Positions 567 to 59,668 of a stretch of DNA of 64,000 nucleotides are shown in pieces. The DNA is taken from positions 253,489 to 317,488 of IMG/VR virus record IMGVR_UViG_3300028914_000001; one strand, written 5' to 3'. The stretch's first letter is position 1, and every line of letters starts with the position of its first letter. The notes beneath the pieces were generated by a model, which was not told where the DNA came from, did no database searches, and was given only the letters and a program-made list of their open reading frames with translations. Made by a program: the position numbers and the translations under genes. Source of the stretch: a virus. Its lineage: Duplodnaviria; Heunggongvirae; Uroviricota; Caudoviricetes.

Positions 567-1163
567 TTAAAACATATGGTCTAGGTCAAAATCCTCTTCA
601 CCCTCTGGCACGGGTTCCTCTGCAGGAGGTTCTTCGCTCGGTGGAGTAGGGTTTTCCGCAGGCTGTTCTGTCTGCTGGTCAGTAGTTTGGTCAGTCGGTG
701 TGTCCGTTTGAGGTTCATCAGCAAACAGGTTATCCAGGTTAAAGTCTTCTTGCTCTTCCACCATAGGTTCAGCAGGAGTTTCTTCGGTTGGTTGTGGCGG
801 CACTGAATTGTCTGCCGGGGGAGGGACCTGACCGAACAGGTCGGCTTGTTGAGCCGGGTCTGGTTCGACGGTTTCGACATTGTCGTCCTTATGGTCGAAT
901 ATCTCGTCGCCTTCCTTCTTGTTGTTGTTTACACCAACCATGGAATGTACCTTGTCCATGAGGTCGTTCACACCCTTTGTGTTGGTCTGCGTGATTTCAG
1001 TCTTTTCGACCGGGGTTTCAGCGGCTTCGTTGTCCGTCTGGCCCATTTGCGGAGCCAAGTTTGATTCCATTAGACATTTGCGGTATATCTTTGATACGGA
1101 CTCGTACAATGCGGGTTCATGGGTTCTTAGATATCGAAGTTGTTGACTGAATGTTGCTGGCAT
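567..1163 (-). CDS. Acidic Pro/Glu-rich late protein with shared N-terminal leader
   Basis: 198 aa ORF downstream of 1168-1608; leader ...LYESVSKIYRKCLMES. Confidence 0.6.
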   Translation of the reverse strand: MPATFSQQLRYLRTHEPALYESVSKIYRKCLMESNLAPQMGQTDNEAAETPVEKTEITQTNTKGVNDLMDKVHSMVGVNNNKKEGDEIFDHKDDNVETVEPDPAQQADLFGQVPPPADNSVPPQPTEETPAEPMVEEQEDFNLDNLFADEPQTDTPTDQTTDQQTEQPAENPTPPSEEPPAEEPVPEGEEDFDLDHMF

Positions 1164-1167
1164 GATA

Positions 1168-1608
1168 TTATCCTACGATGTTGTCCATCTTGCCGTTAAG
1201 TGCGGCATTGACGGTATTCTGAACTTCGTCCAGTTCGCTGTCCAGCTTTTTCTGAGCATCGGCAGCGGCCTTCTGGTTTGCTTCCTTCTGTTTTTCAATT
1301 TCTTGGAAACGTGCGGCGAGAGACATCATTTTCTGTGAGTCGAGGTTATTCAGGTCACCTTGAACAGTCCTTGGTTCGACTTTATTCTGCTGCTGTTGCG
1401 GCTGTTGCTGTTGCTGATTAGCATTTGCAATTACCTGATTCTGCTGTTGTGTATTAGCCGTCGAAATAGTCTGCGGCTGCTGGATGGTAACGGCAGATTC
1501 GAACTGGGATTTGCCTTCGTTCCTTAACCATACGTCGTGCAGGGCGTTGATTGCAGTCTTGAACTTTTCGTCGTCGACGTATTCGTTGATGAACTTGATG
1601 AATGTCAT
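1168..1608 (-). CDS. Gln-rich late protein with shared N-terminal leader
   Basis: 146 aa; GAGGA RBS; TATAAACTA upstream at 1640-1648 (minus). Confidence 0.65.
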   Translation of the reverse strand: MTFIKFINEYVDDEKFKTAINALHDVWLRNEGKSQFESAVTIQQPQTISTANTQQQNQVIANANQQQQQPQQQQNKVEPRTVQGDLNNLDSQKMMSLAARFQEIEKQKEANQKAAADAQKKLDSELDEVQNTVNAALNGKMDNIVG

Positions 1609-1639
1609 TGTACTTTCCTCATGTAATTGCCTCTGTGTA

Positions 1640-1683
1640 TAGTTTATACCCTTGATGCTGATTGTGTACCAGATTATAAACTA
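1640..1683. promoter_or_regulatory. Divergent pair of putative late promoters TATAAACTA
   Basis: TAGTTTATA at 1640-1648 and TATAAACTA at 1675-1683, each upstream of a gene; similar to T4 late TATAAATA. Confidence 0.75.
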
Positions 1684-1705
1684 TAATTGAAAAATTGGAG
1701 ACCAG

Positions 1706-12099: not shown

Positions 12100-12141
12100 T
12101 AGTTTATACCCGGTCAAAAATAGCGGTGCCATTATAAACTA
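12100..12141. promoter_or_regulatory. Divergent pair of putative late promoters
   Basis: TAGTTTATA at 12100-12108 and TATAAACTA at 12133-12141. Confidence 0.75.
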
Positions 12142-21261: not shown

Positions 21262-21330
21262 TAGTTTATAAGATTGGCGGAATGAATTATCTGTGAATAT
21301 TGCATTTAAACCCCAAGACATTATAAACTA
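21262..21330. promoter_or_regulatory. Divergent pair of putative late promoters
   Basis: TAGTTTATA at 21262-21270 and TATAAACTA at 21322-21330. Confidence 0.75.
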
Positions 21331-21352: not shown

Positions 21353-22471
21353 GTGATGAAAAATATCTTCATAGAGTCTGTAAACAGCGTCATCGGATTG
21401 AGTGATGGCCAAAAGGGTGCAGTCGTGTCCTTGTATCGTACCTTGTTTGAGGATGGCGCTGGGTACAAGCCTGCGAATAAAGAAGAGGATAAGAAAGAAG
21501 ATAAGAAGGACGACAAGAAAGACGATAAGAAAGACGATAAGAAAGGCGGTGATAAAACGGATGATGCTCCAGCCGAATGGAAACGAAATCGCACACCGAC
21601 TAATATGACCCCGGTCAAGAAGCGTGATGTTAAATACATAGCGTTGCACTACACGGCTGGCAATTCGTCTTCGTCTGGCTCTGCGTGTAGAACGAAATTC
21701 CCTGCCAACTGTTCAGCCGACTTCATCATTGATGATAGCGAAGTATACCAGTACAATCCTGACTTGGACCACTACTTTACATGGGCTATCGGTGTAAGCG
21801 ACCCTCAGATTAAAGACAACTATGTAGCTGAGGCGAAAGCAAGGGGAATGAATGATGCGGCAAGTCTGTATGGAACTGCCAAGAATGCAAATACCATCTC
21901 AATCGAAATGTGCAGTAACTATAATGGCGAACGTCCTAAAAATGCATCACCGCTAGACCCTAACTTTTACTTGACCGAAGCTACCTTGGGGAATACGGCA
22001 AAGGTCGTTGCGTATTTGTTGAGTAAATATCCTGGCGCAAAGGTAATACGCCATTATGATGTCACTGGAAAACCTTGCCCCGGCCCGTGGTGCAGAGACG
22101 AGAAAGGAACGCAGCAATATCTTTCGTTTGTGCAACGCTGCAATGCTACGCCTGCTCCGAAAAGTGTTGAATATCAAGATGTCGAAGATTCATCGTTTGA
22201 CAAGTCGCAGCCCTCTTGGCCAGATTTCGGTCGTCTGTTTGCTCCAGATAAAACGAAAACGACGGCAGGCGATGCGGCCAACGCTACTACGGAAAATACA
22301 CTGAACGCCGTTATTAACTCAGTTAAAACCCCTGCCGCCAAGGTGCTTGCCGGGGTTATCTCGAAGATTAACCCTAATGCTTCCCCTAATGTTGTCGCCG
22401 AATTTGCCAACATGGTTGCTAGTAAGCCGGAGTTGTTGAAAAATGTACTCAAACTTGTATCAAATAAATAA
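21353..22471 (+). CDS. N-acetylmuramoyl-L-alanine amidase (Amidase_2) with shared leader
   Basis: IALHYTAG, SADFIID, NTISIEMC and RHYDVTGKPCPG zinc-amidase motifs. Confidence 0.85.
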   Translation: MMKNIFIESVNSVIGLSDGQKGAVVSLYRTLFEDGAGYKPANKEEDKKEDKKDDKKDDKKDDKKGGDKTDDAPAEWKRNRTPTNMTPVKKRDVKYIALHYTAGNSSSSGSACRTKFPANCSADFIIDDSEVYQYNPDLDHYFTWAIGVSDPQIKDNYVAEAKARGMNDAASLYGTAKNANTISIEMCSNYNGERPKNASPLDPNFYLTEATLGNTAKVVAYLLSKYPGAKVIRHYDVTGKPCPGPWCRDEKGTQQYLSFVQRCNATPAPKSVEYQDVEDSSFDKSQPSWPDFGRLFAPDKTKTTAGDAANATTENTLNAVINSVKTPAAKVLAGVISKINPNASPNVVAEFANMVASKPELLKNVLKLVSNK

Positions 22472-24170
22472 TAAGTATGCTTTGATGGAAGCTTCGTTGA
22501 AGAGTATTTATGGAATTGATGCCGATACGGTCAATGCTATCATCACATTGCATCAGACGGTATATAAGCCTCAGTTTGAAAGTGTAGGCTCGGTAGCTCG
22601 AATATCCCTTGCCGCTGTACTTACTGGAACCGCCCTTTATTCGGGTGCTGCCGGAGTGATTGCCTCTGCCATCGCCGTCGTTAGCGCTATATCTGGCGGT
22701 ACTGCAATACCGTTCATTGGTGCTGCCGCTGCTGTTCTGTTTGCTGGATGGGCGGTGTACGATGCGGTCACTGATGTGTCCAAGGCAAATAAAGAAGCAA
22801 AGGAAATTATTCACGAAGGCAAAGCGATGGATGTGGCGGAAGCGGCTGTGAAAGAGCAGATGACGAGTAACCCATATGCAAAGTATGCGGTCGATGCGGC
22901 CAAGCGTACAGGACAAATTTTGAAGGAAACTGGCGGCAATCTGATGGATAAGCTTGATGCCGTTTCGAAGACGACAACTACCAAGAAAGCGGATTCAACC
23001 GATACGATAGATGATGACGAGTTTGCCAAAAAGTTTGGTTTCACGAAGGACCTCCAGATTGTCGATGAGGACAATGCACTTAACCATTCGATGCAATTCT
23101 TCTATTACATGAATGGTTTTAACGAGTATGGCAACAAGGTTATAGACAAAGAAGCTCATGATGAGTTCATGAAGCAGTTTGAGGAATATTGGGAAGAACA
23201 TAGTGATTTCCTTCCGTACTTGAACGAGAAGGAAGCAAGGTCCAAGATGTTTGTCGAGTTCGGTCGCAAGTATTACAAGGAAACCTTCATGCCGATGTTC
23301 AGGAAAAAACTTGCCGAAGCCAAGAAACTCAAAGACAAGGGAAAGAGCGTTGAGGAATTGGAAGCGGAAGGACGTAACGAGTTCGGGGATGTCGTTGATA
23401 ATGTAAAATACTACGCCACGATGGGATTCACCCCGGATGCAAAAATTACTGACATCAATAAATTCTCGAAGGCATTTACTGCAAAGACGGGTCTTGACCT
23501 GAGTTACAACCCGGTGTCACCTGAAGGTGAAGAACTGTTGGAACGAATGATGAAGGACAAGTCGGAAGAATATCTGAAATATCTTCCAGCACCAGTGTTC
23601 CTCATGGAAGAGAAAGACCAGAAACCGTTTATCGAGAAAGCCCGTGACCCGAAACGCCGTGGAGAATCGCAGGTTGGCCGTTACGGAAAGGATATGATAG
23701 CATCTAATGCCGCCGCAAACAAAGTTGCGACCGAGCAGAAGGCTGGTAATGGTGCAGTCGCTCGAAATGGTGCGGCGCAACCGCAACCGCAACAACAAAC
23801 GGATTCAAGTAACCAACAGCAGGATGATATCACTAATGCGCCTGATGTAGACAAGCAATCGGGCCCGTACCGTACTGTCGGAAAGGCTCAGTTGCTCAAA
23901 ATATACAACCTCTTGCCAGAGCGTTCAAAGCACCTGATGCGTCTTGGATACATAATGAATATCAATAACGGTAAGTTTTACCGAATGAGTGATGCTGATA
24001 GGCTGGTCATGCCGCAGATTGTTCATGAGGCTCGAAAGGAAGCTGAACGCCAATGGATTGAACAACGCAGACAGGTCAAGCTTAACCAGGGTCGGTTGAC
24101 CAGGGACGATATGACTAAGGAAGAAATTGAGGAATCGAACAGGAGGGCGGGATTCCCCTCGAATAGCTAA
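22443..24170 (+). CDS. Late protein with shared leader and hydrophobic Gly/Ala membrane segment
   Basis: 575 aa; ~55-aa hydrophobic stretch right after QFES; start 22443 or 22484. Confidence 0.55.
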   Translation: MYSNLYQINNKYALMEASLKSIYGIDADTVNAIITLHQTVYKPQFESVGSVARISLAAVLTGTALYSGAAGVIASAIAVVSAISGGTAIPFIGAAAAVLFAGWAVYDAVTDVSKANKEAKEIIHEGKAMDVAEAAVKEQMTSNPYAKYAVDAAKRTGQILKETGGNLMDKLDAVSKTTTTKKADSTDTIDDDEFAKKFGFTKDLQIVDEDNALNHSMQFFYYMNGFNEYGNKVIDKEAHDEFMKQFEEYWEEHSDFLPYLNEKEARSKMFVEFGRKYYKETFMPMFRKKLAEAKKLKDKGKSVEELEAEGRNEFGDVVDNVKYYATMGFTPDAKITDINKFSKAFTAKTGLDLSYNPVSPEGEELLERMMKDKSEEYLKYLPAPVFLMEEKDQKPFIEKARDPKRRGESQVGRYGKDMIASNAAANKVATEQKAGNGAVARNGAAQPQPQQQTDSSNQQQDDITNAPDVDKQSGPYRTVGKAQLLKIYNLLPERSKHLMRLGYIMNINNGKFYRMSDADRLVMPQIVHEARKEAERQWIEQRRQVKLNQGRLTRDDMTKEEIEESNRRAGFPSNS

Positions 24171-24194: not shown

Positions 24195-25859
24195 ATGCCA
24201 TTTAACGGGATTCCTAATTTGCGAGATGCAAATGAGCCAGTCAAGCTCGACCTTTACAAGTTAAAGGAAATAAAGAAGTGCGCACTTGACCCGATTTACT
24301 TCATCCGTAACTACGTGTACATCAACACCAAGGACAACGGCATGCAGTTGTTCGACCTGTACGACTTTCAGGAGAGTGCAATAGCCAGGTTCCTGAAATA
24401 CAGGTTTAACATAAACAAATGGTCGAGACAGGTTGGAAAATCGACGGTCGTCCGTGGGTTTATCCTTTGGTGGGGTATCTTCCATAAGGACCAGCTCATA
24501 GCCATGATTGGTAACAAACTGTCCTTGGCAAAGGAACAGATGCAGCAGCTCCGTGATTCGTACAGCCGACTTCCAGTATGGTTGCAACCCGGTGTCAAGC
24601 TGTGGAACAAGACTTCCATCCAGTTCTCGAACAACTCACGCATCATCGTTTCTTCGTCCTCTCCTGACAATATCCGTGGTTTCTCGATTAACCTTTTGTA
24701 TCTGGACGAATTTGCGTTCCTTAGGCCTAACCTTGCGACGGAATTCATCGCTTCCGTTATGCCGTCTATTTCTTCGGGTAAGACAACCCGTTGTATCATC
24801 ACCTCCACTCCTAACGGCATGAACCACTTTTACGAAATGTGGCAGACATCCTTGGAGGAAAAGGAAGCTGCTGTCGAGTTCGAGAAGGGGAACAACAACC
24901 TCTATGTGCGCTCCGTTGTTCAATGGAACGAGGTTCCCGGTCGAACAGAGGCTTGGGCAAATGCTGAAAAACTTAAAATTGGCGACCAGCGTTTCCGTCA
25001 GGAATACGAATGTGAGTTCGTCGGTTCTGGTATAACCCTTATCGACTACCGTTGCTTGGAAAAGTTGAAGGCATCGGACCCGCTTCCGTTCGATGACAGT
25101 ATATGGCCTCCGGCTCTTGCTGACATCGTAAGGGATATTTCTATGAGGGCGTTCAAGTATCCTGAACCCGTGGGAGCTATCGAGGCCAAGGGATACTCGT
25201 ATGTCGCATCCATCGATACGGCTTATGGTATGAGACAGGACGCCCATGTCTTGCAGATTGTGAAGGTGTATTCAAACATCAGGTGTGAACAGGTGTTCAC
25301 GATGTCGTCCAACTGTACGGAAGTGAATGATTTCTGTAAGATAGCGAACATCATTCTTAAATTCTATCGCAACCCGTACCTAATCATCGAATACAACGGA
25401 CCTGGAAAATCCACCTATGACTACTTCTTCAATGTGGCCATGTATCCTAATATTCTCAACTTTGACTTGAAGTGCCGTGGTCTGTGGGCAACGCCGACGT
25501 TGAAGAGCAACGTGGTCATCCTCCTTAAAATGTACATCCAGCGTGAATACTTGAAGGTGTATGATTACAACACAATCATGGAACTCATGACGTTTACTCA
25601 GAAAACCCAGAATACATGGGGCGGCGGAGGAAATACGCACGATGACCATGTGACCTCGTTGTACTGGATTGTCTACTATCTCACCACGACATACTACTAC
25701 GGCAACTACGAAGCAATAGAAGACCTAACCGAAACGGAAATGCTGAGGTTGAGTACGGAGATGAGGAACCGTTATATGGATGTACTTGACTTCGTCAGGT
25801 CTCCCGAAGCTCAACAGGAACAGCACAGGCTTGGGGCTCTTGCGGAAGCGAGTGTATAA
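24195..25859 (+). CDS. terL: Terminase large subunit (T4 gp17-like)
   Basis: DPIYFIRNY, SRQVGKST, LYLDEFAF, TSTPNG, FRQEYECEF, IDTAYG, HDDHV. Confidence 0.95.
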   Translation: MPFNGIPNLRDANEPVKLDLYKLKEIKKCALDPIYFIRNYVYINTKDNGMQLFDLYDFQESAIARFLKYRFNINKWSRQVGKSTVVRGFILWWGIFHKDQLIAMIGNKLSLAKEQMQQLRDSYSRLPVWLQPGVKLWNKTSIQFSNNSRIIVSSSSPDNIRGFSINLLYLDEFAFLRPNLATEFIASVMPSISSGKTTRCIITSTPNGMNHFYEMWQTSLEEKEAAVEFEKGNNNLYVRSVVQWNEVPGRTEAWANAEKLKIGDQRFRQEYECEFVGSGITLIDYRCLEKLKASDPLPFDDSIWPPALADIVRDISMRAFKYPEPVGAIEAKGYSYVASIDTAYGMRQDAHVLQIVKVYSNIRCEQVFTMSSNCTEVNDFCKIANIILKFYRNPYLIIEYNGPGKSTYDYFFNVAMYPNILNFDLKCRGLWATPTLKSNVVILLKMYIQREYLKVYDYNTIMELMTFTQKTQNTWGGGGNTHDDHVTSLYWIVYYLTTTYYYGNYEAIEDLTETEMLRLSTEMRNRYMDVLDFVRSPEAQQEQHRLGALAEASV

Positions 25860-32351: not shown

Positions 32352-32360
32352 TATAAACTA
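32352..32360 (+). promoter_or_regulatory. Putative late promoter TATAAACTA
   Basis: Perfect motif 26 nt before 32387. Confidence 0.75.
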
Positions 32361-32386: not shown

Positions 32387-33136
32387 ATGAATCCGTACAA
32401 AATCTTTGTTGAATCCATGCAGGATGCAGGCATTGATTCGACTACTATTGATGCGGTTGCTGCTATCCACAAAGCCATCTATGAGGCTGCCGAAGACGAC
32501 TCTGATGACGATAAGAAGAAAGGCAAAAAGCCAGAAAAGGACGAAAAGGAAGAAAAGGACGAAAAGGAAGAAAAGGAAGGCCCCGACGAGAATGAATTTG
32601 AAGGACCAGAGGATGACCCTCCTTCTGAAGACGATAAGTCCGATGATGTAGACGGAGCTCCTGACGAAGACCCGCCTGATTTCGAACCCGATGAAAGCCC
32701 GGAAACCGCAGCTAACGAACCGAACGCCGACGAAGGCGCCAAGGCTATCATGTACAATATCCTTACCCTCATGAATGCCAAGCAGAACGCATACCAGCAA
32801 TACCACTGGAATGCCGAAGGCAAAGCTCTCCACGAGAAGGCTCAGGAATGCTATGAGCTCTATCAGGAAACGAAGGACAAGGTGGCGGAAACATTGCAGG
32901 CTACCTACAACGAAAACATTGATTTCAAGGTATGGTCGGGCAAGATTCCTAACCTTACGGACAAGGGTGCATTCCTCGCATCAGTCGATGAAGACCTTGA
33001 CCAGATTTCCGAGTTCCGTTCCCAGCTCGAACACTTCGAGACGTTTGGCTTGAATGGAACGCTTGATGGATTCATTGATGAATTGACTGGAATCAAGTAT
33101 CACCTTATCAGGTTCTTTGAAAACAAGGACGCTTAA
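32387..33136 (+). CDS. Ferritin/Dps-like protein with shared leader and acidic linker
   Basis: YHWN....LHE...E.Y......D.VAE four-helix motif in the C-terminal half. Confidence 0.65.
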   Translation: MNPYKIFVESMQDAGIDSTTIDAVAAIHKAIYEAAEDDSDDDKKKGKKPEKDEKEEKDEKEEKEGPDENEFEGPEDDPPSEDDKSDDVDGAPDEDPPDFEPDESPETAANEPNADEGAKAIMYNILTLMNAKQNAYQQYHWNAEGKALHEKAQECYELYQETKDKVAETLQATYNENIDFKVWSGKIPNLTDKGAFLASVDEDLDQISEFRSQLEHFETFGLNGTLDGFIDELTGIKYHLIRFFENKDA

Positions 33137-33150: not shown

Positions 33151-33951
33151 ATGCGTAGAAATCCCGACATATTCGCCTTGCCGCCAGACCCGCTGCCAAC
33201 CATGCTGATGACTCGTGACGATATCACCGAGTACATCAAGGCTAGGCTTGGCTATCCTGCGACAGAGATAGAAATGGAAGTGGAAAACCGAAACGGTCTT
33301 GGGCACATTGCCATGGCAATTCAAGACTCGCTCGACTACTTCTACCGTTATATGCAGTCTGAGGCCACTTACAGCGACTACATGATTATCCAGTTGAAAC
33401 AGGGAATCATGGAGTATAGGGTTCCAGACAATGTGTACCAGCTTGTTGACTTGAACCCGAGCTACGGCAATACGTTCAGCCCGATGATGGCGTGGGATGT
33501 TGGCCCAGGCGAATCCCTTATGGGTGTTGGCGGCGCAGGTCTCGGCGGATTGGGACAGTTCGACCTTATCACCTATGCAGGCGCCCTCAGGTATCTGCAA
33601 GATGTTAAGAAATTGGTCGGAACCCAGTACAGCGTGAAGTTGCACCCGGTCGAGCACCGTATGCGTGTCTACCCGACACCGAAGACGGACAGGTTCGCAA
33701 TCGCCCGTGTCTACTTGAAGGCAAAGCAGGCGGAAGTGTTCGCAAACCCGCTGTTCAGGGACTTCGTCGTGTCCCGTGCTGGTATGCAGCTCGGTATCAT
33801 CCTCATGAAGGATACGGTCTCGCTCCCAGGTGGCGGAACGGTGAACGGGCAGACGATTTACACCACTTGGAAGGAAATCAACGACAAGAAACTCGAAGAA
33901 ATCAAGAACGAGGCTGCAAGGCCGTGCATGATGACTGACTTGTCTAACTAA
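33151..33951 (+). CDS. Neck protein (T4 gp13-like)
   Basis: YIKARLGYP..EIE, AIQDSLDYF and LPGGGTVNG motifs. Confidence 0.8.
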   Translation: MRRNPDIFALPPDPLPTMLMTRDDITEYIKARLGYPATEIEMEVENRNGLGHIAMAIQDSLDYFYRYMQSEATYSDYMIIQLKQGIMEYRVPDNVYQLVDLNPSYGNTFSPMMAWDVGPGESLMGVGGAGLGGLGQFDLITYAGALRYLQDVKKLVGTQYSVKLHPVEHRMRVYPTPKTDRFAIARVYLKAKQAEVFANPLFRDFVVSRAGMQLGIILMKDTVSLPGGGTVNGQTIYTTWKEINDKKLEEIKNEAARPCMMTDLSN

Positions 33952-47054: not shown

Positions 47055-50000
47055 TTACACATAAAGTGAAGTGGTCTGAGTGTTGCTAGAACCATTGGAC
47101 TCAACAATAGTTCTCAGTGTAATCCAGCGAGAGGTCTTGGTCGGCTTCAAGCGGAGGTCAACGTGCAACTCGTTCCTGTCGATAACGTCAGGGGTGTTGT
47201 TCGTGTCGTCGCAGATAGCCGTACCTGAGTACAAACCAGCCGGGTTAGAGTTCATGATTGCATCCAACTGAGCCTGCAAATCGGACTGAATGTTCGTACG
47301 CAGGTTGGTCGTATTCAACTGGAAGACCTTCCTATCGAGGTAGTGATAGAACATCTTGTGAATACCAGCCAAGAGCATAGCGACATGAATCTGGTCGAAT
47401 GCAGAGCTTTCCTTCTGCATCGTGAAGTCGCCCCAGATGAACATTCCACGGCTGTTGAAACGAGTCGGGTTGACCCTGATTTCAGTCAAACGGGCAATGT
47501 TGGAATCCGTGTCTTCAGGATACTTGAAGGTTCTCGGATACTTTTCGGTTACACCCCATTCAGTCGGGATGACAGCGTTGATTTCACCAGCAGGCGGCAA
47601 CCACCAGATACCGTTGGCAGCGTTTGCCGTGATGATGGAAGCGAGCTGTACGGACTTCACCACTTCCACATTCATGAGCGTGTAGTAGCTGTCGAAGAAT
47701 ACGCCACGACCATCATAGATAGCACCCCAGCGTCCCTTCACTCCGAAGCCTTGTGCGCCAATCATCTTCTTGAGGGTTGTCTCGATGTTGGCTTCGCCTA
47801 CGCCGTCAAGGATAGCGAAGCAGTCCTTACGGAGTTCGCAAACATTGAGGATTGCGGAAATGACCGTACCATCGAGAACCTCACGGTTCTTCTTGAACAG
47901 GTTCTTGACACCAGTACCAGCACCGATGAGCATCGACACGTCCGTGCCGTCCTTGTCAAGGAACAGGTTCCATGCGTTGGACAGGGTTGCCGAGTCGCTG
48001 TTGTTGGCTGGCGTGTATTCCCAGATTGCGTCGTTGATGATGGCCGGGTCACGTTCATCGTAGGAAAGCATCGTGGAGACAGAGTCGAGATGACCGTTCT
48101 CAACGCTCTGAGACAAGTCGTAAGCGTTGTTCGTGAGGAAGTTGTCGAGGATGCCGCTGTCGTTGATGAGGAGCCTTGCACCGCTGTCCGTGAGAACAGA
48201 GTCGGCCACGTCACCAATGTAGAGGTTTCCGTCATCATGCACGTAAGGCACGATGGTTCCTTCCATCTCGTAGGTCTTGCCGTTGAAGTGGTAGGTGATG
48301 TAGAGGTACATCCTTGCGATGGCCTCGCCTTCCGCAGAAAGCACATACACCTGCTTTGCAACGCCGTTGAAGTTCACATCTTCATACTTGACGGATGCAA
48401 GACCCATTGCGTTGAACGAAGCACCGATTTCGTCGCTCACGAGGAGCTTGTCGGTACGCTGGACAACACCGTCGTTGTATGTCGTGTAATCAAACGTGAG
48501 TATTCCGTCATCGTTTGCGAGGAACTTGTTTTCCTGTACGCTTGCCGGAACCGTCAGGTCGTATGCCCCGAGCATGTTGAACGTAAGCCCGTCCTTACCA
48601 GATGTCCAGATGTTGGCATTGGATGCCGTCAGGTCGACGAGCTTCCATGTGCTGTTTGTACCGAACTTCTTGATATTGAGCTCATCGTCATATTCGACTG
48701 TGTTGGCGTGGCTCAGGATAACGATGTCCTTGAATGTATTTATGTTCTGAACGACATAAACATCGTTCTTGTCGAAGTATTTCGGGTCGGCTGGCTTGTT
48801 GGACTTCTGCCTTACGAATGCTACAAGGTCGCCAATGTTGTACTGCGTAGCAGTTCCAAACGGGACTTGCACACCGAATGTTGATGTCGTGTTGTACTTT
48901 GTCCTGTCGGCAATGTCAGAGAGTTGAGTAACATTGTTTCCAAGGTAGGTGTTGATTGCGAATCCTTCCTTGTTGAATGCAGCGAGAATATTATTCGTCG
49001 TTGCAGTGAGGTTGATTATCTTACCTCCAAGAGAGGTGTTGTCGGCAACTTCCTCACCGTTCTTTCCAGTGATAGTTATTGCACCAGAACCAGTCACTGC
49101 GGTGACGTAATATTCCTTCTTACCGTCGGTGTCTAGCTGGATGATGTCGTCGGCAGATACCGTACCTACTTCAACCATTCCACGAGTCTGCAATTCGGAA
49201 GGCTTGCCCGTTAGGTCCTCTGGGAACACGAGCGTAACGACGTACTGGGTCGTTGTCGTTGTCACCTTGTAAGTAACTGACTTGGTGACCGTAGCGCCTT
49301 GCTGTGGAGCACTTTCAGCAGCAACCTGGTAGGTCAATACCCATTTGTTGTTGGTGGTGTCGACGGATATTTCTGCACCAGACACTACTGGATTGCTTGC
49401 GTTTTCGGGGATAGTTGCGCTTGCCGTAACTGTTCTAGGGTCTCCTGTCTCACTCACCGAATCAACAGTAAATTCTACATCATGAGGAGTTGTGTTTTCT
49501 ACAGTATTGCTCTCGACCTCTGGTCCAGATACTTTAACGCCAACGTATTCTTTGGTCGTTTCTTCAGTACCATCAGTGAAGGTTGCTACAACGGAGTCAT
49601 CAGCATTAATTGACTTCATGAAGTTTTTGGCTTCATTCTCAGTATCAAACGATGCGATGAGTTCGTTATCGAATTCTTCGGACGCTTCGACGTTATCGAG
49701 TACCACGGTGTTCAATATCTTCGGTCGATTGGTATTGACATTCAACGTAACAATCTTTGCAGATGCGTCGCATGTTTCCGTTCCAATAGAAGATATTTCG
49801 TAAGCACTGAATTGCTCCACTTCGCTCTCTACGGTAGCGTCCAAGGTGACTCTTGCTACACCTTCGAGCGTAACCGATTCGACCGTACCTGTAACCGTCT
49901 TCGTGATGGTTTCCTCATCAACAGTAACTTGGTATGTAAACGTGATGATATCACCCGCTTCGATGACAGCTTCTTCTGGCGTAAATGTAAGAACCTTGCC

Positions 50001-51143
50001 TTCGATTCCGCTGGTATTAACTGTTTCCTTGGTTTTAAGTCCAAAGATACGGGTAACCTTGATGTTGCCATCTGGTTCCCTCAACAGGATTTCGGAGCCC
50101 ATCTTGACATTAGCAAAATCGACTTCGCCAGTTTCCGTCTTGATGTAGTTCATCTCGCCGTACTTCTTTACAGCACGGTTAGCAACAGCTGTCTTGACTT
50201 CGAGGTAGTCTACACCAGTTGTCGCATCGTCGTTATTGCAGAAGAATGTTGCCGTAGTGTTGGTTAGTGACGGGATGTTCTCCTGCTCGGTCTCGTACTC
50301 GGCGACAACCTGTGTATCCAGAATCTTGTTGACGGTTGCGTACACACCCTTCTCGCTATCAACGAAGTTTGAAGCAGGGAAGTAGATTACGTCGCCAACG
50401 CTGAATGCAGGAACGGAGTCGCAAACGAGTGTTACAAGCTTCTTGTTTTCTCCGCCGATGTCTTTTCGTACGGTTGCCGTGTAACGGTCTGCTGCACGCT
50501 TTGCCGCAGTCGGGTCGCTGTTGACGAGAGCGAAGAGCACCACGTTGGTGTCGGAACGCACATCAGACGGCTTGCCTTCCTCGTTGAACTCTTCACCAGC
50601 GGTAAGCTGGAAGTCCACATTGGAGTTCTCTGCTATGGTTTCCTGAATGGTGTTAATCTTGCGCTTACCGCCAAAACCAGCGAATCCGTCAGCGATATAA
50701 CGAGTAGCGGCGAAGTGACGGATATCGAAGGATGTGTGAATCACTTCGGTCTTGTTCTCAGCCCTGCTACGAGAATTGTCGTAGTAGTCATCTTTCGCAG
50801 CGTTGCGGTCGAAAGCCACGACGAAAGCGTCGGACTTCAAGTCGGACTTGCGAACGTCGGTCTTTTCCACCTGTTCGCCGTATGGACGAACGAAGTGTAC
50901 GTGGCCGCCGTTGTTAAGCACGGCACGGGTAGCGTACATACCCATGTTCCACTTGGCCTGGTTAAAGCCGAGGCCGAGGATTGAATCCTGGTTCGCCGTA
51001 TTGGTGATTTTCAGGATTTTGTTAAATTCGCCCTTGGGTGAGTAGCCGACAACACCGCCGATTAGAGCCGGATTGTCAATGAAAGAATAACCTGAACGGT
51101 CTTCAATCTTGATGGCCACGCCTGGACTTCCTTTTCTAGCCAT
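47055..51143 (-). CDS. Tail sheath protein (gp18-like) with large insertions
   Basis: SPGVAIKIEDRS N-terminus; RKDCFAILD, WLPPAG, VNP...IWG..T and CDDTNNTPDVIDRNEL...LKP; start reassigned to 51143. Confidence 0.92.
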   Translation of the reverse strand: MARKGSPGVAIKIEDRSGYSFIDNPALIGGVVGYSPKGEFNKILKITNTANQDSILGLGFNQAKWNMGMYATRAVLNNGGHVHFVRPYGEQVEKTDVRKSDLKSDAFVVAFDRNAAKDDYYDNSRSRAENKTEVIHTSFDIRHFAATRYIADGFAGFGGKRKINTIQETIAENSNVDFQLTAGEEFNEEGKPSDVRSDTNVVLFALVNSDPTAAKRAADRYTATVRKDIGGENKKLVTLVCDSVPAFSVGDVIYFPASNFVDSEKGVYATVNKILDTQVVAEYETEQENIPSLTNTTATFFCNNDDATTGVDYLEVKTAVANRAVKKYGEMNYIKTETGEVDFANVKMGSEILLREPDGNIKVTRIFGLKTKETVNTSGIEGKVLTFTPEEAVIEAGDIITFTYQVTVDEETITKTVTGTVESVTLEGVARVTLDATVESEVEQFSAYEISSIGTETCDASAKIVTLNVNTNRPKILNTVVLDNVEASEEFDNELIASFDTENEAKNFMKSINADDSVVATFTDGTEETTKEYVGVKVSGPEVESNTVENTTPHDVEFTVDSVSETGDPRTVTASATIPENASNPVVSGAEISVDTTNNKWVLTYQVAAESAPQQGATVTKSVTYKVTTTTTQYVVTLVFPEDLTGKPSELQTRGMVEVGTVSADDIIQLDTDGKKEYYVTAVTGSGAITITGKNGEEVADNTSLGGKIINLTATTNNILAAFNKEGFAINTYLGNNVTQLSDIADRTKYNTTSTFGVQVPFGTATQYNIGDLVAFVRQKSNKPADPKYFDKNDVYVVQNINTFKDIVILSHANTVEYDDELNIKKFGTNSTWKLVDLTASNANIWTSGKDGLTFNMLGAYDLTVPASVQENKFLANDDGILTFDYTTYNDGVVQRTDKLLVSDEIGASFNAMGLASVKYEDVNFNGVAKQVYVLSAEGEAIARMYLYITYHFNGKTYEMEGTIVPYVHDDGNLYIGDVADSVLTDSGARLLINDSGILDNFLTNNAYDLSQSVENGHLDSVSTMLSYDERDPAIINDAIWEYTPANNSDSATLSNAWNLFLDKDGTDVSMLIGAGTGVKNLFKKNREVLDGTVISAILNVCELRKDCFAILDGVGEANIETTLKKMIGAQGFGVKGRWGAIYDGRGVFFDSYYTLMNVEVVKSVQLASIITANAANGIWWLPPAGEINAVIPTEWGVTEKYPRTFKYPEDTDSNIARLTEIRVNPTRFNSRGMFIWGDFTMQKESSAFDQIHVAMLLAGIHKMFYHYLDRKVFQLNTTNLRTNIQSDLQAQLDAIMNSNPAGLYSGTAICDDTNNTPDVIDRNELHVDLRLKPTKTSRWITLRTIVESNGSSNTQTTSLYV

Positions 51144-51174
51144 AATACCCTCTATTTGGTCATTACTCATCATA

Positions 51175-53251: not shown

Positions 53252-53260
53252 TATAAACTA
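53252..53260 (+). promoter_or_regulatory. TATAAACTA motif upstream of nrdD
   Basis: Perfect motif 23 nt before the ATG. Confidence 0.6.
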
Positions 53261-53283: not shown

Positions 53284-56046
53284 ATGATTAAGTACGTAAT
53301 TAAAAGAGATGGCCGACGTGCCAAATTTAATCCAGTTAAAATTTCTGACGCAATCACGAGTGCTTTCCTCGACAAGGAGATGCAGGTCGGGAAGAGGGAA
53401 CTAGAAAATCTGACCGACAAGGTCTGTGACAAGATTGAAGCCTCTACGGACAAGCCGACGGTTAGCGTCGAGACTATCCAGGACATCGTTGAAGATGTAC
53501 TCATGTCCAAGGACAAGTACAAGGAAGTTGCCAAGGCTTACATCCTTTACCGGGCGGAAAGAACCCGCAAGCGTGAATCCAAGAGCAAGATTATCAGCAC
53601 CATTCAGGAAATCAAGGCTGCCGACCTCAAAAGTTCCAACATCCTCCGTGACAACGCAAATGAATCTGGTTGCACTCCCGCAGGAGCATACGGAAAAATC
53701 GCATCAGAGACCAACAAGACTTACAACTTGCTCAATGTCGTGGACCGTAACATCGCCGAGCTCCATTCCAAGGGCTACATGCACATCCATGACCTGAACC
53801 TTTACGACCTCACTTTCAACTGTCTTTTTGCCCCAATCGGGAAGCTGCTGGAAAAGGGCTTCGACTCTGGTACGGGCTTCATCCGTGCCCCCAAGTCAAT
53901 CCAGTCTGCCGCATCTATCACCGCCGTAATCCTGCAGCTTCAATCTAACCAGCAGTTCGGTGGCATCGCTTCCGCAAACCTCGACTTCGAACTCGCCCCC
54001 TATGTGGACATGTCCTTCAAGAAGAATCTTGCGTGGATTATCGCTTCCGAAAAGGTGTTGGGCGAAAGAAGTCTCGGTTTCGAGTCCTTCGATGACATCG
54101 ACAATGCAGAAATCGAGAAGGAAATCAAGAAGGAAGCTCACGCTATCCGCAGCCAGATGGCTAAGGACGGCCTCAGCCTCGACCAGCCGTTCAAGGATGT
54201 CGTCGCAAAGTACGACCGCAAGGCTGTCGTTCAGGCTTACATCAAGACCAAGGACGATACCTACCAGGCGATGGAAGGTCTCGTACACAACCTCAACTCA
54301 TTGCAGTCCCGCTCTGGCAACCAGGTTCCGTTCAGCAGCTTGAACTTTGGCCTTGACACTTCCCGTTGCGGTCGTCTCGTTTCGAGCAACCTTATCGCAG
54401 CACAGATGGCAGGCCTCGGCGACGGACTTACAGCAATCTTCCCGATTCTTATCTTCAAGTACATGAAGGGTGTCACCTATCTCCCGGACGACCCGAACTA
54501 CGATTTGAGGAAGTCTGGTATCGCATGTCTCGCCCGCCGCTTCTACCCGAACGGTGTCGCAGTTGACAACGAGTTCAACGCCCCGTACATCCGCTACGAA
54601 TACAACGACGATTTCAAGCTTACCGATGACACCATTGTCAAGAAGATTGGTAGCGACCGTGTTGCCAAGTATAGTGAAGTCGCTTCCGAAAACGATGTCT
54701 ATCCTCGCTGGGAAGTCCTTGTTGACGGCAAGTACTGGCAGATTTGTAAGGGCCGTCTCCAACGCATCATTCCTGAAAGCACGGTTTCCACGATGGGCTG
54801 CCGCACCCGTGTTATCGGCAACGTGAATGGCCCGGAACAGACTGTTGGCCGTGGCAACCTTGCGTTCCACACACTTAACCTCCCGAAGCTCGCAGTCGAG
54901 GCTCATATCGAGGCTACGACGGAAGCTGACCGCATCAAGCTCTTCAACGAGAAGCTTGACCGTATGCTCGTTGTCGCAAAGAAGTCCCTTGAAGACCGTT
55001 TCGAAGTTATCGCAAAGAAGACGTACGAGAACTTCCCGTTCACGATGCAACAGGGCCTGTATCTCACGTCCGACGACAAGGTTCACGACATTCATGACAC
55101 CATCGCAGAAGTTCTCCGTCAGGGTACTCTCTCCATCGGTTACATCGGCGTTTACGAAGCTGTTCTCGCACTCACGGGCAAGACCTGGGGCAAGGACGAG
55201 GAAGTGTTCGATGTCGGTTACAACATGATTAAGCGTATCCGTGACTTCTGTGACAAGACCCAGAAGGAAACCCACATGAACTGGAGCTGCTTTGCAACTC
55301 CTGCAGAAGCCGTCTGTGGAAGGTTCTGCAACATCGACATGCATCAGTTCATGAGGAACGCCGCACTCGAAGGTGAATTGTTCACGAAGGAAAGTTACGA
55401 TATTGAGGATGCAAATGCTTGCATTTCCGTAAGGAATGTCGCTACGAAGAACAAGGTGTCGATTCCTTATCCTGAACTTCTCGAAAACAAGTCTGCCTAT
55501 GTTGACAAGTACGAATATTGTCATGATGGAAAGTGGGGTATCATCGACTCCATCAGCAAGCAGAAGATTGGCGTCAAGTATTGGACCGACTTCGGTTACC
55601 ACATGTGGGGCAAGGGCTACCTGACCAACTCCCATATGCTTCCGTTCAGCTTGAAGACCACGCTTGCAAACAAAATCAAGTGGGAAGCTCCGTTCCACAA
55701 GATTACCAACGCTGGGCACATCTTCTACCACAAGATGGATGGCGACCTCAGCAAGAACCTCGAAGGTGTCGAACAGGCGATGAACGCAATGTACGAGGGA
55801 GGCATGGGTTACTTCACGGTGACCATGGATTCCGATACGTGCATCGCTCCGCAGCCTAATGGAAAACCGTGCGGATTCCACGGTGTAATCAATGGCCGTT
55901 GCCCGAAGTGCGGTAATATGTTGGAAAAATATATCATTCGTGTAAGAAGAATAACAGGTTATCTTACGGGCGCCCCGCAGAAGTCGATATTTGACGCCTG
56001 GAACCAGGGTAAGATAAATGAATGGGGTGACCGAGTGAACATTTAA
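53284..56046 (+). CDS. nrdD: Anaerobic ribonucleoside-triphosphate reductase (class III) with ATP cone
   Basis: VIKRDGR ATP cone, HIHDL, MGCRT, GRGNL, TPAE, YLTNS, CPKCG and RRITGYL glycyl-radical loop. Confidence 0.95.
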   Translation: MIKYVIKRDGRRAKFNPVKISDAITSAFLDKEMQVGKRELENLTDKVCDKIEASTDKPTVSVETIQDIVEDVLMSKDKYKEVAKAYILYRAERTRKRESKSKIISTIQEIKAADLKSSNILRDNANESGCTPAGAYGKIASETNKTYNLLNVVDRNIAELHSKGYMHIHDLNLYDLTFNCLFAPIGKLLEKGFDSGTGFIRAPKSIQSAASITAVILQLQSNQQFGGIASANLDFELAPYVDMSFKKNLAWIIASEKVLGERSLGFESFDDIDNAEIEKEIKKEAHAIRSQMAKDGLSLDQPFKDVVAKYDRKAVVQAYIKTKDDTYQAMEGLVHNLNSLQSRSGNQVPFSSLNFGLDTSRCGRLVSSNLIAAQMAGLGDGLTAIFPILIFKYMKGVTYLPDDPNYDLRKSGIACLARRFYPNGVAVDNEFNAPYIRYEYNDDFKLTDDTIVKKIGSDRVAKYSEVASENDVYPRWEVLVDGKYWQICKGRLQRIIPESTVSTMGCRTRVIGNVNGPEQTVGRGNLAFHTLNLPKLAVEAHIEATTEADRIKLFNEKLDRMLVVAKKSLEDRFEVIAKKTYENFPFTMQQGLYLTSDDKVHDIHDTIAEVLRQGTLSIGYIGVYEAVLALTGKTWGKDEEVFDVGYNMIKRIRDFCDKTQKETHMNWSCFATPAEAVCGRFCNIDMHQFMRNAALEGELFTKESYDIEDANACISVRNVATKNKVSIPYPELLENKSAYVDKYEYCHDGKWGIIDSISKQKIGVKYWTDFGYHMWGKGYLTNSHMLPFSLKTTLANKIKWEAPFHKITNAGHIFYHKMDGDLSKNLEGVEQAMNAMYEGGMGYFTVTMDSDTCIAPQPNGKPCGFHGVINGRCPKCGNMLEKYIIRVRRITGYLTGAPQKSIFDAWNQGKINEWGDRVNI

Positions 56047-56065: not shown

Positions 56066-56098
56066 AAAGCCGTTTGAACTTAGTTTCAAACGGCTTTT
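56066..56098. terminator. Bidirectional intrinsic terminator
   Basis: AAAGCCGTTTGAA...TTCAAACGGCTTT between convergent genes. Confidence 0.8.
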
Positions 56099-56117
56099 CT
56101 GTATATTCTAGTAAACT

Positions 56118-56885
56118 TTATTTGCTAGTATATGGAAGGTCATCGTTTTTCCATTCAGTTTTAAACCTATGCACATCACGCATGATTCTCCAGGCACATT
56201 GCTCTGGTTCGATTACGCTATCCATTCCAGCATTGTTATCTTCTTGACCCTCCGTGCCGTAGAAAACAGCTTTTACGTCTGCTGCGTCAGGGCCGTTCAT
56301 TGGGTCAAAACTGTACAGGACTTCCTCTTTCTCTTCTGGGCTCACATCATCAAGGAAGTCGATTAAAGATGCGTAGCGTATTCCGCTGAGATGTGTTGAA
56401 TAATTGTCATCAGGGGGCTCGTCCATTCCATGGTTTGGATAAATGAAGCCCAAGCAGACGGTCTTGTACCATACAGTGCATTCGTGTTTTTCATCGTCAT
56501 ATTCCACCGTTACGTCATCATTTCCGCTACGGGATGCGAGTAACTGGTTTATGTGTCTGGCCAAGTTGGATAGTGACCTGTCTCGTACTTCATTGCTGTC
56601 AGCGTCCCAGTCTCCGTTCTTAAACAACCACTCGTTTCTTTGTTTCATGATATGCGGGTGGTCATGATACTCCATCGTCTTTTTAAAGAGAGGGTCTTCA
56701 TGAAACGGCTTGCTATCTAATGGAAAGAATGCATAGCCAGCACCAGTTCCTTCCATAATGGATTTTTCGCTCGCTTCGCACAATACATTGAAACCTTCTT
56801 TTAGTGCAGGCAGTGCGTTCATGCAGTTGAACTTTCGGCATACTCCTTCAAGGAACGCATTCATGGTCTTCTGATATTCTTTCAT
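56118..56885 (-). CDS. Late protein with shared N-terminal leader
   Basis: 255 aa; TATAAACTA at 56919-56927 (minus); NAFLEG...NVLCEAS. Confidence 0.6.
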   Translation of the reverse strand: MKEYQKTMNAFLEGVCRKFNCMNALPALKEGFNVLCEASEKSIMEGTGAGYAFFPLDSKPFHEDPLFKKTMEYHDHPHIMKQRNEWLFKNGDWDADSNEVRDRSLSNLARHINQLLASRSGNDDVTVEYDDEKHECTVWYKTVCLGFIYPNHGMDEPPDDNYSTHLSGIRYASLIDFLDDVSPEEKEEVLYSFDPMNGPDAADVKAVFYGTEGQEDNNAGMDSVIEPEQCAWRIMRDVHRFKTEWKNDDLPYTSK

Positions 56886-56918
56886 AACACTTACTCCGAG
56901 TGTTTGACTTTATACCAG

Positions 56919-56927
56919 TAGTTTATA
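56919..56927 (-). promoter_or_regulatory. Putative late promoter TATAAACTA
   Basis: TAGTTTATA on the plus strand, upstream of 56885. Confidence 0.7.
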
Positions 56928-57606: not shown

Positions 57607-57632
57607 TTGCAATCCATTAGGTTCATCTATGG

Positions 57633-57641
57633 TATAAACTA
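57633..57641 (+). promoter_or_regulatory. Putative late promoter TATAAACTA
   Basis: Perfect motif upstream of 57671. Confidence 0.7.
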
Positions 57642-57670
57642 TATTTAATTGGAATCCATAGGATATCAAC

Positions 57671-58018
57671 ATGAAAGTAAAAGCAAACGATTTGTTTGAA
57701 AGCTATCTGAAAACGATTTGTAATTCCCAGGCACAGTTCGAGGCAATCAACAACCTGCACAAGCTCTATTTCGAGTCCGATATGGGTAAGGAAGTGGAAT
57801 GCGGTGATGATGCCGACTGCTGCAAAGGTGAATGCAAGGACGGAAAGTGTGAATGCAAAGACGGCAAATGCGACTGCAAGGATGACAAGTGCGAAGGCAA
57901 GAAGGGTATCAACGAAGCCGTAGGTGAAGATGGCATTGATATCCAGGAAGAAGCAAGAAGGAACGGTCTCAGCGTGCCCGAATATCAGAAAGCGTTGGAG
58001 ATGTTTACCAGCAACTAA
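57671..58018 (+). CDS. Small late protein with shared leader and Cys-rich repeat
   Basis: LFES...AINNLHKLYFES followed by CCKGECKDGKCECKDGKCDCKDDKC. Confidence 0.7.
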   Translation: MKVKANDLFESYLKTICNSQAQFEAINNLHKLYFESDMGKEVECGDDADCCKGECKDGKCECKDGKCDCKDDKCEGKKGINEAVGEDGIDIQEEARRNGLSVPEYQKALEMFTSN

Positions 58019-58029
58019 GGGGCTTTGTT

Positions 58030-59400
58030 ATGGATAAGAGAGGGTTTAACATTGGGCTGAACGGTCTCAAGGACAAATTCCCCGACAAGTTGATACTTAT
58101 CGAGGGTTTGCAGCGTGCATTTAACCGTGAAGTCCCGTCGATTTCGAGGGAGAACCTTGTCGCCCTGTATCAGAACCCTGCCCAGTTCATGGTGAAGAAG
58201 ATACTTGCGGACGGCCTTTGGACGACTCAGCTCCATGAATGGGCGGATAATGGCCTTGAAGACCTGCTTTACATCAATCCGATTTATCTGGGTGCCAAGA
58301 ACGCCTATGGTGATACCGTGTTGATGAACCTTGTCGAGTACGCTATCGGAAAGACGACGGAGCAAATCAATTTCGATTTCCTTAAAAAGCTACTTGAAAA
58401 CCCGATGGTATTCGAGTACAAGATTAACGAGGACGGGGAAACATGTCAGGAAAGCGTTTGGGATATCAAGGATGTGACCGGGCGCACTCCGATAGACTAC
58501 CTTAGCGATATGGCTAGCGGAACGGGCACTTGTGCTGGATGCGAACCTATCGTTGAACTTGCCCCTCTCATCGCTGAGTGGTCATCCATCATGCAGCAGG
58601 CACTTCCCGCTGAAGATGAAGGTGACATGACCGAAGAACCCGTTGAAGAAGAACAACCTGAGGAACAAGCACCTCCGACGGAAGATGAAATTCTTGCATC
58701 GATTTCTGAATACGAACTTTGCGATGGCGAGTGTAACCCTGGAGAAGATGAACCTCTTGCTGACATGGATGCCGCCGATGGAAGTAATCCAGACACGGGC
58801 ATTGTCGATGAGGCTCCCGCAGATAACGGCGTTGATGAGGAACCCATTCCCGAAGAAGCCCGTGCCATGATTCACGATGAGGTCGGAAAGGACCCGTTCA
58901 TCCGTGACACTGGAAATGTGGAAAGAATCGCTAGGGCTAAGCCGACGGTTACCGAATCTGTATCTGGGGACGCCCCGGAGTACCGTACCCCGACTTATGA
59001 CGAGCTTAAAAGCTTGATTCACAAGTCTTCCGAGAATGAACACCAGAAGTACCGCAACGACTGGGAACAGAACAAGGATGCCATCATTGCCGAAGACGAG
59101 CAGTTTGCCGATGATATCATGTCGGGTTCAGCCGTCGCATTGACCAAGACGGGTGACGACATCGTCATCTACACGCCGCAGGATGGTGGATACTTCATCT
59201 GCGACCTGTACGTGGATGAACCATTGAGGGGTCAGGGCATCGGTTCGGAACTGGTTCAGGAAGTGATTGACCGTGCGGGAGACAGTCCAGTATGCCTTTG
59301 CGTTGCGAAGGGCAATACGGATGCGCAGAACCTGTACGAAAAGTTCGGTTTCAGAAAATGCGGGGAAACCCCTGAGCAATACAAGATGATACGAGCCTGA
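58030..59400 (+). CDS. Ankyrin-like/acidic linker/GNAT acetyltransferase fusion
   Basis: C-terminal VDEPLRGQGIG and N..AQNLYEKFGF; N-terminal KNAYGDTVL and KDVTGRTPIDY. Confidence 0.7.
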   Translation: MDKRGFNIGLNGLKDKFPDKLILIEGLQRAFNREVPSISRENLVALYQNPAQFMVKKILADGLWTTQLHEWADNGLEDLLYINPIYLGAKNAYGDTVLMNLVEYAIGKTTEQINFDFLKKLLENPMVFEYKINEDGETCQESVWDIKDVTGRTPIDYLSDMASGTGTCAGCEPIVELAPLIAEWSSIMQQALPAEDEGDMTEEPVEEEQPEEQAPPTEDEILASISEYELCDGECNPGEDEPLADMDAADGSNPDTGIVDEAPADNGVDEEPIPEEARAMIHDEVGKDPFIRDTGNVERIARAKPTVTESVSGDAPEYRTPTYDELKSLIHKSSENEHQKYRNDWEQNKDAIIAEDEQFADDIMSGSAVALTKTGDDIVIYTPQDGGYFICDLYVDEPLRGQGIGSELVQEVIDRAGDSPVCLCVAKGNTDAQNLYEKFGFRKCGETPEQYKMIRA

Positions 59401-59401
59401 T

Positions 59402-59668
59402 TTACTTGACCGTGGTTACATCGGTTCCATCAGGAAGGGTCTGAGTCATTTTCAGGCCCTCTTCTGTTATACGGATGTTGTTGTCCTTGTGTTCGTCGAG
59501 GGTTTCAAACTCGGCAAGGGACGGGGGTTCCTCGTCGGCCATGTCAACGAGGTTTGCGTCGGGGGTGTTTTCCCCGTATACGGTGTTGTACAGGTCGCTT
59601 ACCGTCTGTTTGTCAATGTCGTTGAGTTCTTCCGAACCTTCGATTGCTTCTAAAAAACTGCGTTTCAT
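59402..59668 (-). CDS. Small acidic protein with shared leader
   Basis: MKRSFLEA...TVSDLYNTVYGE; GGAG RBS. Confidence 0.6.
   Translation of the reverse strand: MKRSFLEAIEGSEELNDIDKQTVSDLYNTVYGENTPDANLVDMADEEPPSLAEFETLDEHKDNNIRITEEGLKMTQTLPDGTDVTTVK

Follow-up and report, generated by a model that had tools for sequence, protein, structure and literature searches.

Leader-bearing genes of the window

The DNA analyzed here (the window, 64,000 nucleotides) comprises bases 253,489-317,488 of the 422,150-bp IMG/VR genome, with direct terminal repeats, of an uncultured T4-type phage, and the subject of this study is a segment of about 33 residues, the leader, at the N-termini of otherwise unrelated proteins encoded there and elsewhere in the genome. 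The original prediction, made from the letters of the window, proposed that eight dispersed genes carry one common leader and that it loads proteins into the phage head. All eight open reading frames (ORFs), with their N-terminal strings, were found where that prediction had placed them. The eight candidates are listed below, the arrow marking the bond after the terminal Glu of each segment.

21356-22471, plus strand: amidase protein; leader at residues 1-32 (nt 21356-21451), ending TLFE↓D
32387-33136, plus strand: protein with leader at residues 1-33 (nt 32387-32485), ending AIYE↓A
57671-58018, plus strand: protein with leader at residues 1-35 (nt 57671-57775), ending LYFE↓S
22443-24170, plus strand: protein with divergent leader at about residues 11-46, ending PQFE↓S
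59402-59668, minus strand: protein with borderline leader at residues 1-33 (nt 59570-59668), ending VYGE↓N
56118-56885, minus strand: 255-aa protein with a possible remote variant at residues 1-37 (F11-x25-E37), ending VLCE↓A
1168-1608, minus strand: 146-aa Gln-rich protein with an unproven look-alike leader at residues 1-37, ending SQFE↓S
567-1163, minus strand: acidic 198-aa protein, N-terminus ending CLME↓S, membership unsupported

A hidden Markov model (HMM) seeded on six N-termini regarded as strong and iterated over every stop-to-stop frame of the whole genome converged on 25 ORFs, with a gap in E-value from 9.5e-7 to 0.12. Each of these 25 matches starts one to six residues from an ATG, and a leave-one-out test recovered 22 of them. 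Five shuffled databases gave no match at E<0.01, compared to 25 in the real one. A profile search of 1.84 billion representative proteins returned 121 clusters, of which about 118 are genuine; some 90 of these align from residue 1, and the remainder have an in-frame translated promoter ahead of the leader. For a non-circular test, an HMM was built from the 118 outside clusters alone, without the sequences of this genome, and this outside-only HMM finds 23 solid members in the 422,150-bp genome. The shared N-terminal leader is thus a real family with at least 23 members genome-wide and is not peculiar to the window. An all-versus-all BLAST comparison of N-termini, a method too insensitive for this purpose, did not recover the family de novo, and the extra links that it gave were low-complexity Gln/Pro repeats. 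Exhaustive HMM searching of a 260-kb relative whose capsid protein is 66% identical found no leader members, nor did searches of three further distant relatives, indicating that the family is clade-restricted.

The claim that the eight candidates form one family held for some of them, with two to three failing every test. The 21356, 32387 and 57671 proteins are solid members by the outside-only HMM (E 8.9e-6, 2.2e-12 and 4.5e-9, respectively). The amidase gene likely starts at ATG 21356 rather than at GTG 21353, and its leader is followed by a Lys/Asp-rich linker and an N-acetylmuramoyl-L-alanine amidase domain (Amidase_2, E 3.8e-15). In the 32387 protein a highly charged linker precedes what is tentatively a four-helix Dps/ferritin-like domain, and the 57671 leader is followed by a Cys/Lys/Asp-rich repeat segment. 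The outside-only HMM fails on the 22443 protein (E 3.3); membership is supported by profile-profile comparison, in which its family profile matches the outside leader profile across 33 columns (hhalign P 6.5e-6). Directly after this leader lies an Ala/Gly-rich hydrophobic stretch of about 60 residues, and then a long charged C-terminal part.

The remaining four are less secure. The 59668 protein, acidic and 88 aa long, is borderline (E 3.5 with the outside-only HMM; E 0.011 for its ortholog in the relative G005), and its gene is the second of a unit whose first gene, 59665-60489, bears the promoter motif described below. No HMM match was obtained for 56118-56885, which retains the F-x25-E register exactly, together with the motifs at either end, and has a paralog of the same variant at genome position 211462; the register pattern is matched by 15 of 540 genes, compared to 0.4 expected per shuffled proteome, and hhalign gives an ungapped match to the leader profile at P 0.0015. 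The 1168-1608 protein matches that profile over 14 columns only (hhalign P 0.022), with an F-to-E spacing of 35 and not 26. For 567-1163 there was no HMM match at E<50, and fitting it to the ungapped family would require two indels. The inclusion of these last two is therefore unsupported.

The 1168-1608 protein has 78 homologs at 52-100% identity, making it far more conserved than most leader cargoes, and its N-terminus (F-I-x-F-I-N ... F-E-S) is conserved yet distinct from the main leader family.

Leader anatomy, promoters, head genes and cargo

The leader is an ungapped F-x25-E block, 32-35 residues long up to a conserved Glu. Its consensus start is M-N-R-K-K-L-F-E-E-S; an L-G-L-S turn follows Phe7, and the second helix starts with Q-x-E-A-[VI]. 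In a logo of 143 sequences, Phe7 is present in 141 and Glu33 in 125. Position 31, P3 relative to the Glu, is Cys or Leu in 120 sequences and C/L/I/V in 132, mostly Cys; position 32 is L/F/M, and position 34 (P1') is Ala, Ser or Gly in 114. The leader end thus reads C/L-[FLM]-E-[ASG], in keeping with the predicted terminal Glu and placing a small residue after it. Conservation is absent after position 34, where most proteins continue as charged, low-complexity disordered linkers.

An AlphaFold2 model built from a 25-row alignment places one helix at residues 3-12 and another, after a loop, at residues 18-44 (mean pLDDT 82, and above 89 over the first 30 residues). This helical hairpin agrees with the two-helix leader of the original prediction. 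The 'LGLS..Q' turn was also considered as part of a DNA-binding helix-turn-helix, an idea dropped since there are two helices without a third and nothing else spoke in its favor. Pairwise identity at codon positions 1, 2 and 3 is 39.7, 52.6 and 31.1%, respectively, indicating selection on the peptide and not on an RNA or DNA element.

A promoter-like motif, TATAAACT, occurs 13 times in the window compared to 1.3 expected. Of 65 sites genome-wide, 62 are followed by an ATG ORF beginning 12-96 nt downstream, mostly at 30-40 nt. The sites related to the eight candidates are as follows.

21322-21329, plus strand: TATAAACT promoter-like motif, 34 nt ahead of the amidase gene
32352-32359, plus strand: further TATAAACT site
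57633-57640, plus strand: further TATAAACT site
1641-1648, minus strand: further TATAAACT site
56920-56927, minus strand: further TATAAACT site
60513-60520, minus strand: further TATAAACT site

As had been proposed, all eight genes lie downstream of the motif, each having a site 34-42 nt upstream or following a gene that has one. Genome-wide, the motif stands 14-54 nt upstream of 17 of the 25 leader genes; the other eight follow such a gene. TATAAACT resembles the T4 late promoter TATAAATA, and late expression from it is plausible. The stronger claim that the motif, given as TATAAACTA, is strictly late is not supported: it also stands ahead of ribonucleotide-reductase-like and DnaJ-like genes; the motif is accordingly not restricted to structural genes. 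The ribonucleotide-reductase-like case is the site at window 53252-53259, which precedes a gene for 920 aa (53284-56046) whose N-terminus resembles a ribonucleotide reductase ATP-cone.

Other arrangements of the motif were also seen. Back-to-back divergent pairs of TATAAACT sites, 25-52 bp apart, occur at window 1641-1682, 12101-12140 and 21263-21329, each site driving the gene on its own strand. Outside the window, at genome 359681-361462 (minus strand), a leader subfamily (MDKR..IFMEG) is embedded in a longer open frame, in which an upstream domain is joined to the leader with no stop, the TATAAACT promoter between them being in frame and translated as 'YKL'. About 18 outside clusters show this layout, with upstream parts of 24 to 511 residues. 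Such embedded leaders suggest either that nested promoters yield two products or that the tag is internal, with a cut site on each side.

Leader genes are also found among the head genes of the phage. These head genes include one for a gp23-type major capsid protein (PF07068, 218 bits) and, immediately upstream of it, one for a T4-type portal (genome 217339-218613; PF07230, 232 bits). As the original prediction had supposed, there is also a T4 gp21-type prohead protease (genome 154049-154780, minus strand; Peptidase_S77; PF03420, 49.4 bits, above the cut-off), which PHROGs identifies as phrog_207, head maturation protease (E 1.9e-30). Around the protease, PHROGs assigned a family to the protease alone. 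Leader members directly adjoin the protease (member at genome 155068-155805) and the capsid gene (member at 214895-215479), as well as, in the window, the terminase (21356 and 22443) and the neck adaptor (32387). In detail, 21356 is the first gene of a unit that runs on into 22443 and the large terminase gene, and 32387 lies directly upstream of the head-tail adaptor-like gene.

The hydrophobic-x-Glu-small motif that ends the leader recurs in proteins of the same neighborhoods. It is invariant, as LVE-A and AFE-A, in a coiled-coil scaffold candidate just downstream of the protease when homologs down to 40% identity are compared, and it is conserved in the capsid N-terminus in all relatives examined. 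A small core-like protein also carries it.

Genome 154788-154964 (L095:8786-8965), minus strand: 59-aa core-like protein, between a leader gene and the protease gene

This protein contains two '[YV]-M-E-S' motifs, and in a 65-aa homolog from a distant relative the matching places are taken by CVE-S and VFE-S; in this it resembles the small core proteins gp67 and gp68 of T4, which are cut at both ends. The protease-adjacent leader member has an ortholog in the relative whose capsid protein is 66% identical; there, an N-terminus of 15 residues, with AIVE at its end, takes the place of the 33-residue leader. Replacement of the leader by this short stub suggests that the leader is a clade-specific, exchangeable piece, for which a stub of CTS-like size (capsid targeting sequence, see below) can stand. 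A complex prediction from the leader and scaffold-candidate alignments scored 0.00 and was counted neither for nor against binding.

The proteins behind the leader, here called cargo, range from 56 to 1357 aa and mostly have no known family; PHROGs gave no family for the ten leader-bearing proteins tested. Recognizable domains in this genome include Amidase_2 (21356), SLT, PG_binding_1, NUDIX, WG repeats and a SWIM-like zinc finger, the NUDIX member adjoining the capsid gene and the SWIM-like member the protease gene. Domains that recur among 105 outside clusters are limited to PG_binding_3 (15), PG_binding_1 (11), SLT (3) and Amidase_2 (1). The description of the eight cargoes as unrelated stands: Amidase_2 was confirmed, and the membrane-like, Cys-rich, Gln-rich and acidic proteins are visible in the sequence. 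So does the modular character of the tag, an N-terminal leader on otherwise unrelated proteins. Compared to orthologs in a relative with 89% capsid identity, most cargoes share only 16-37% identity, the slower-evolving exceptions being the NUDIX member (82-88%) and the protease-adjacent SWIM-like member (about 60%).

The cargo described as ferritin-like (32387; window 32741-33133) found weak support, as a Dps-like protein. It contains an 'HWN' helix, Dps chains are its top Foldseek matches (E 0.045, prob 0.91), and phmmer gives weak matches to Dps. This label is kept tentative because the single-sequence model is poor (pLDDT 64) and the E-values are weak.

A candidate capsid-targeting propeptide

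In T4, the capsid targeting sequence (CTS) of IPI, IPII, IPIII and Alt is removed by gp21 (Mullaney and Black 1996, via PMC9026906, PMC8442874, PMC3012670). These internal proteins reach the prohead core by means of an N-terminal CTS of 10-19 residues (MKTYQEFIAE), and any protein fused to it is packaged. Residues 4 and 7 (Phe7) serve targeting, and residues 8 and 10 (P3 and the P1 Glu) serve processing by gp21 (PMC9026906). The T-even phages have diverse internal proteins with only the CTS in common. By this literature (PMC9026906), the T4 precedent invoked in the original prediction is a fitting one.

We consider it probable, judging from sequence comparison, that the leader is an extended T4-type propeptide that targets proteins to the capsid and is removed by the gp21-type protease. 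This reading is favored by a module that is homologous among otherwise unrelated proteins and sits at their true N-termini; by Phe7 and the hydrophobic P3, Glu P1 and small P1' residues, which parallel the residue requirements of the T4 CTS; and by a genome that encodes the gp21-type protease, gp23-type capsid and T4-type portal. Further support comes from leader genes flanking the protease, capsid, terminase and neck adaptor genes, from the recurrence of the Glu motif in the scaffold candidate, the 59-aa protein and the capsid N-terminus, and from the two-helix model, the peptide-level selection and the exchangeable short-stub ortholog. The fast divergence of most cargoes matches that of T4 internal proteins, and the layout of 22443, a propeptide followed by a transmembrane segment, parallels gp47 of phage SPN3US.

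We infer docking, cleavage, packaging and ejection as the steps of such a system. Each protein would be made late, bearing an amphipathic helix-loop-helix of about 33 residues at its N-terminus, and this hairpin would dock the protein on an interior component of the prohead, either the scaffolding core or the inside of the shell, so that the cargo would be enclosed while the T4-type shell assembles. The gp21-type prohead protease would then cut after the conserved Glu (C/L-[FLM]-E↓A/S/G), freeing the cargo within the head while the small hairpin escapes. At infection the cargo would probably exit with the DNA, delivering peptidoglycan hydrolases and binders, a NUDIX hydrolase, the Dps-like and the putatively membrane-inserting protein, and many others of no recognized type. 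Such a mix would suit proteins that are released from the head at entry to work in both the envelope and the cytoplasm.

The resemblance to the T4 CTS extends to several features. Both are N-terminal tags on otherwise unrelated, fast-evolving proteins in phages with a gp21-type protease, gp23-type capsid and gp20-type portal, and both end in hydrophobic-x-Glu followed by a small residue, each with a key Phe some seven residues in from the Met. The start F-x(0-1)-E-[SAG], found in 97 of 143 leaders, recalls EFIAE↓A of T4, and Phe stands at position 7 as in MKTYQEFIAE, ten residues being too few for statistics. In contrast to T4, the leader has 32-35 residues and so lies outside the 10-19 of the CTS, is modeled as a two-helix hairpin and not a short peptide, has mostly Cys at P3, is carried by at least 23 proteins of this genome compared to a handful in T4, and precedes peptidoglycan-binding or -degrading cargo where T4 has small basic DNA-associated proteins.

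A second comparison is with the phiKZ-like giant phages, in which SPN3US gp47, gp53 and gp54 and the inner-body proteins of phiKZ have long, removable N-terminal propeptides (PMC5694885). These too are giant phages with many internal or ejected head proteins whose N-terminal propeptides are cut after Glu and whose N-termini are conserved across paralogs, and in SPN3US gp47 the propeptide is followed by a transmembrane segment, comparable to the hydrophobic stretch of 22443. However, their propeptides have 79 to >120 residues and are cut at A/S/G-x-E (PMC5694885), whereas the leader has about 33 residues with Cys, Leu, Ile or Val at P3. Those propeptides are also common to few paralogs and do not form a single portable module on some 20 unrelated cargoes, and that lineage is unrelated to the present T4-type phage.

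How a two-helix leader could dock is suggested by analogy with phage P22, whose scaffolding protein binds the interior of the procapsid shell through a C-terminal amphipathic helix-turn-helix of about 40 residues. Unlike the leader as proposed here, this coat-binding domain is C-terminal, belongs to the scaffold and not to cargo, is uncleaved and is unrelated in sequence.

Several observations weigh against a cleaved capsid-targeting propeptide. Glu33 is absent from 18 of 143 leaders, which means that any cleavage at that exact bond cannot be universal, and P3 is mostly Cys where T4 sites have Leu or Ile. In length the leader exceeds every T4 CTS two- to threefold, and a stretch of 10 residues is too short for homology to be proved. 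Non-structural genes, too, have the promoter motif ahead of them, and peptidoglycan binding leads the recognizable cargo (26 of 105 clusters), which would fit a destination in the cell envelope equally well.

Another reading takes the hairpin for a permanent assembly or oligomerization domain that is never cut and that anchors proteins to each other or in the virion (inside the head, at the portal or in the lumen of the tail), its Glu being structural. The confident, compact helix-loop-helix model, the 18 leaders without Glu and the conserved Cys31, which could be structural, speak for such a domain, which we nevertheless judge unlikely: past Glu-small the conservation breaks off sharply and disordered low-complexity linkers begin, the motif is seen again in the scaffold candidate, the core-like protein and the capsid N-terminus, and the 15-residue stub of the ortholog still ends in hydrophobic-x-Glu. 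We give a slimmer chance to the idea that the destination set by the leader is not the capsid but the envelope of the host cell, late in infection, for lysis or cell-wall remodeling. Its main argument is that PG_binding_1, PG_binding_3, SLT and Amidase_2 are the sole recurrent cargo domains, to which the hydrophobic stretch right behind the 22443 leader can be added. Against this idea, peptidoglycan-active ejected proteins are found in other phages, such as gp16 of T7. The leader itself is amphipathic and charged, without a hydrophobic core or a signal-peptidase-type site; at least 23 proteins far exceed the needs of lysis; and the members include NUDIX, SWIM-like and Dps-like domains of cytoplasmic type and lie in head gene clusters.

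It is also conceivable that the similarity reflects a mobile cassette of promoter and 5' coding sequence kept for efficient transcription or translation, the peptide having no function. T4-type phages reportedly shuffle regulatory cassettes, and TATAAACT[AG] stands 33-40 nt ahead of 17 of the 25 leader genes, an almost constant distance. Nevertheless, this explanation is already disfavored by the codon-position identities, third positions being near random (31%) and second positions 53% identical. Eight members have no promoter of their own, the motif drives about 45 other genes without a leader, and the amphipathic amino-acid pattern keeps a strict F-x25-E register, so that we regard a functionless peptide as highly improbable.

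If the leader is a capsid-targeting propeptide, this phage would have the largest known set of capsid-targeted cargo of any T4-type phage, including the tentatively Dps-like DNA-binding protein loaded in the head. The leader would be a defined, folded and transferable loading signal by which tag-bearing 'dark' proteins of uncultured giant phages could be recognized, from sequence alone, as belonging inside the head. It would bear on the filling of a very large head and, because much of the recognizable cargo acts on peptidoglycan, on the passage of a 422-kb genome through a Gram-negative envelope. A longer, structured tag with a mapped cut site might also provide a second, orthogonal packaging handle for engineered T4-like particles. 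A more far-reaching version is possible, though we hold it doubtful: the clade may use one portable, folded 33-residue hairpin to load the head with at least two dozen interchangeable cargoes that are clipped and then ejected to form or aid a trans-envelope entry apparatus, an 'ejectosome', with internal tags, flanked by cut sites, carrying in an upstream-fused domain. Such an apparatus, of a kind known from short-tailed phages, would here occur in a contractile-tailed T4 relative.

Relatives and neighboring genes

The phage has no close counterpart in GenBank. A nucleotide search of 50,697 GenBank phages with the window and the capsid gene gave zero matches, and in protein searches the capsid and sheath proteins are only about 25-30% identical to those of T4-like phages. 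One head-gene homolog is binned as Prevotella. Structural genes with which the leader genes of the window are interspersed are listed below, with the search that identified them.

Window 24195-25859: large terminase (PHROGs)
Window 33151-33951: head-tail adaptor-like gene (PHROGs)
Window 47055-51173: tail sheath, 1372 aa (protein search)

Upstream of the protease cluster (genome 146000-165000) lies a gene for an 890-aa protein (L095:9816-12488, minus strand) that matches no known family. Its N-terminal 250 residues or so are repetitive and rich in Lys, Gly and Glu; the true portal is elsewhere (217339-218613). Finally, the genes at window 59665-60489 (minus strand) and genome 114143-114925 (plus strand) encode paralogs that share an N-terminal '...F(F/N)..FF.GKLP' segment of SprT-like appearance, and both adjoin a leader gene and are driven by TATAAACT.

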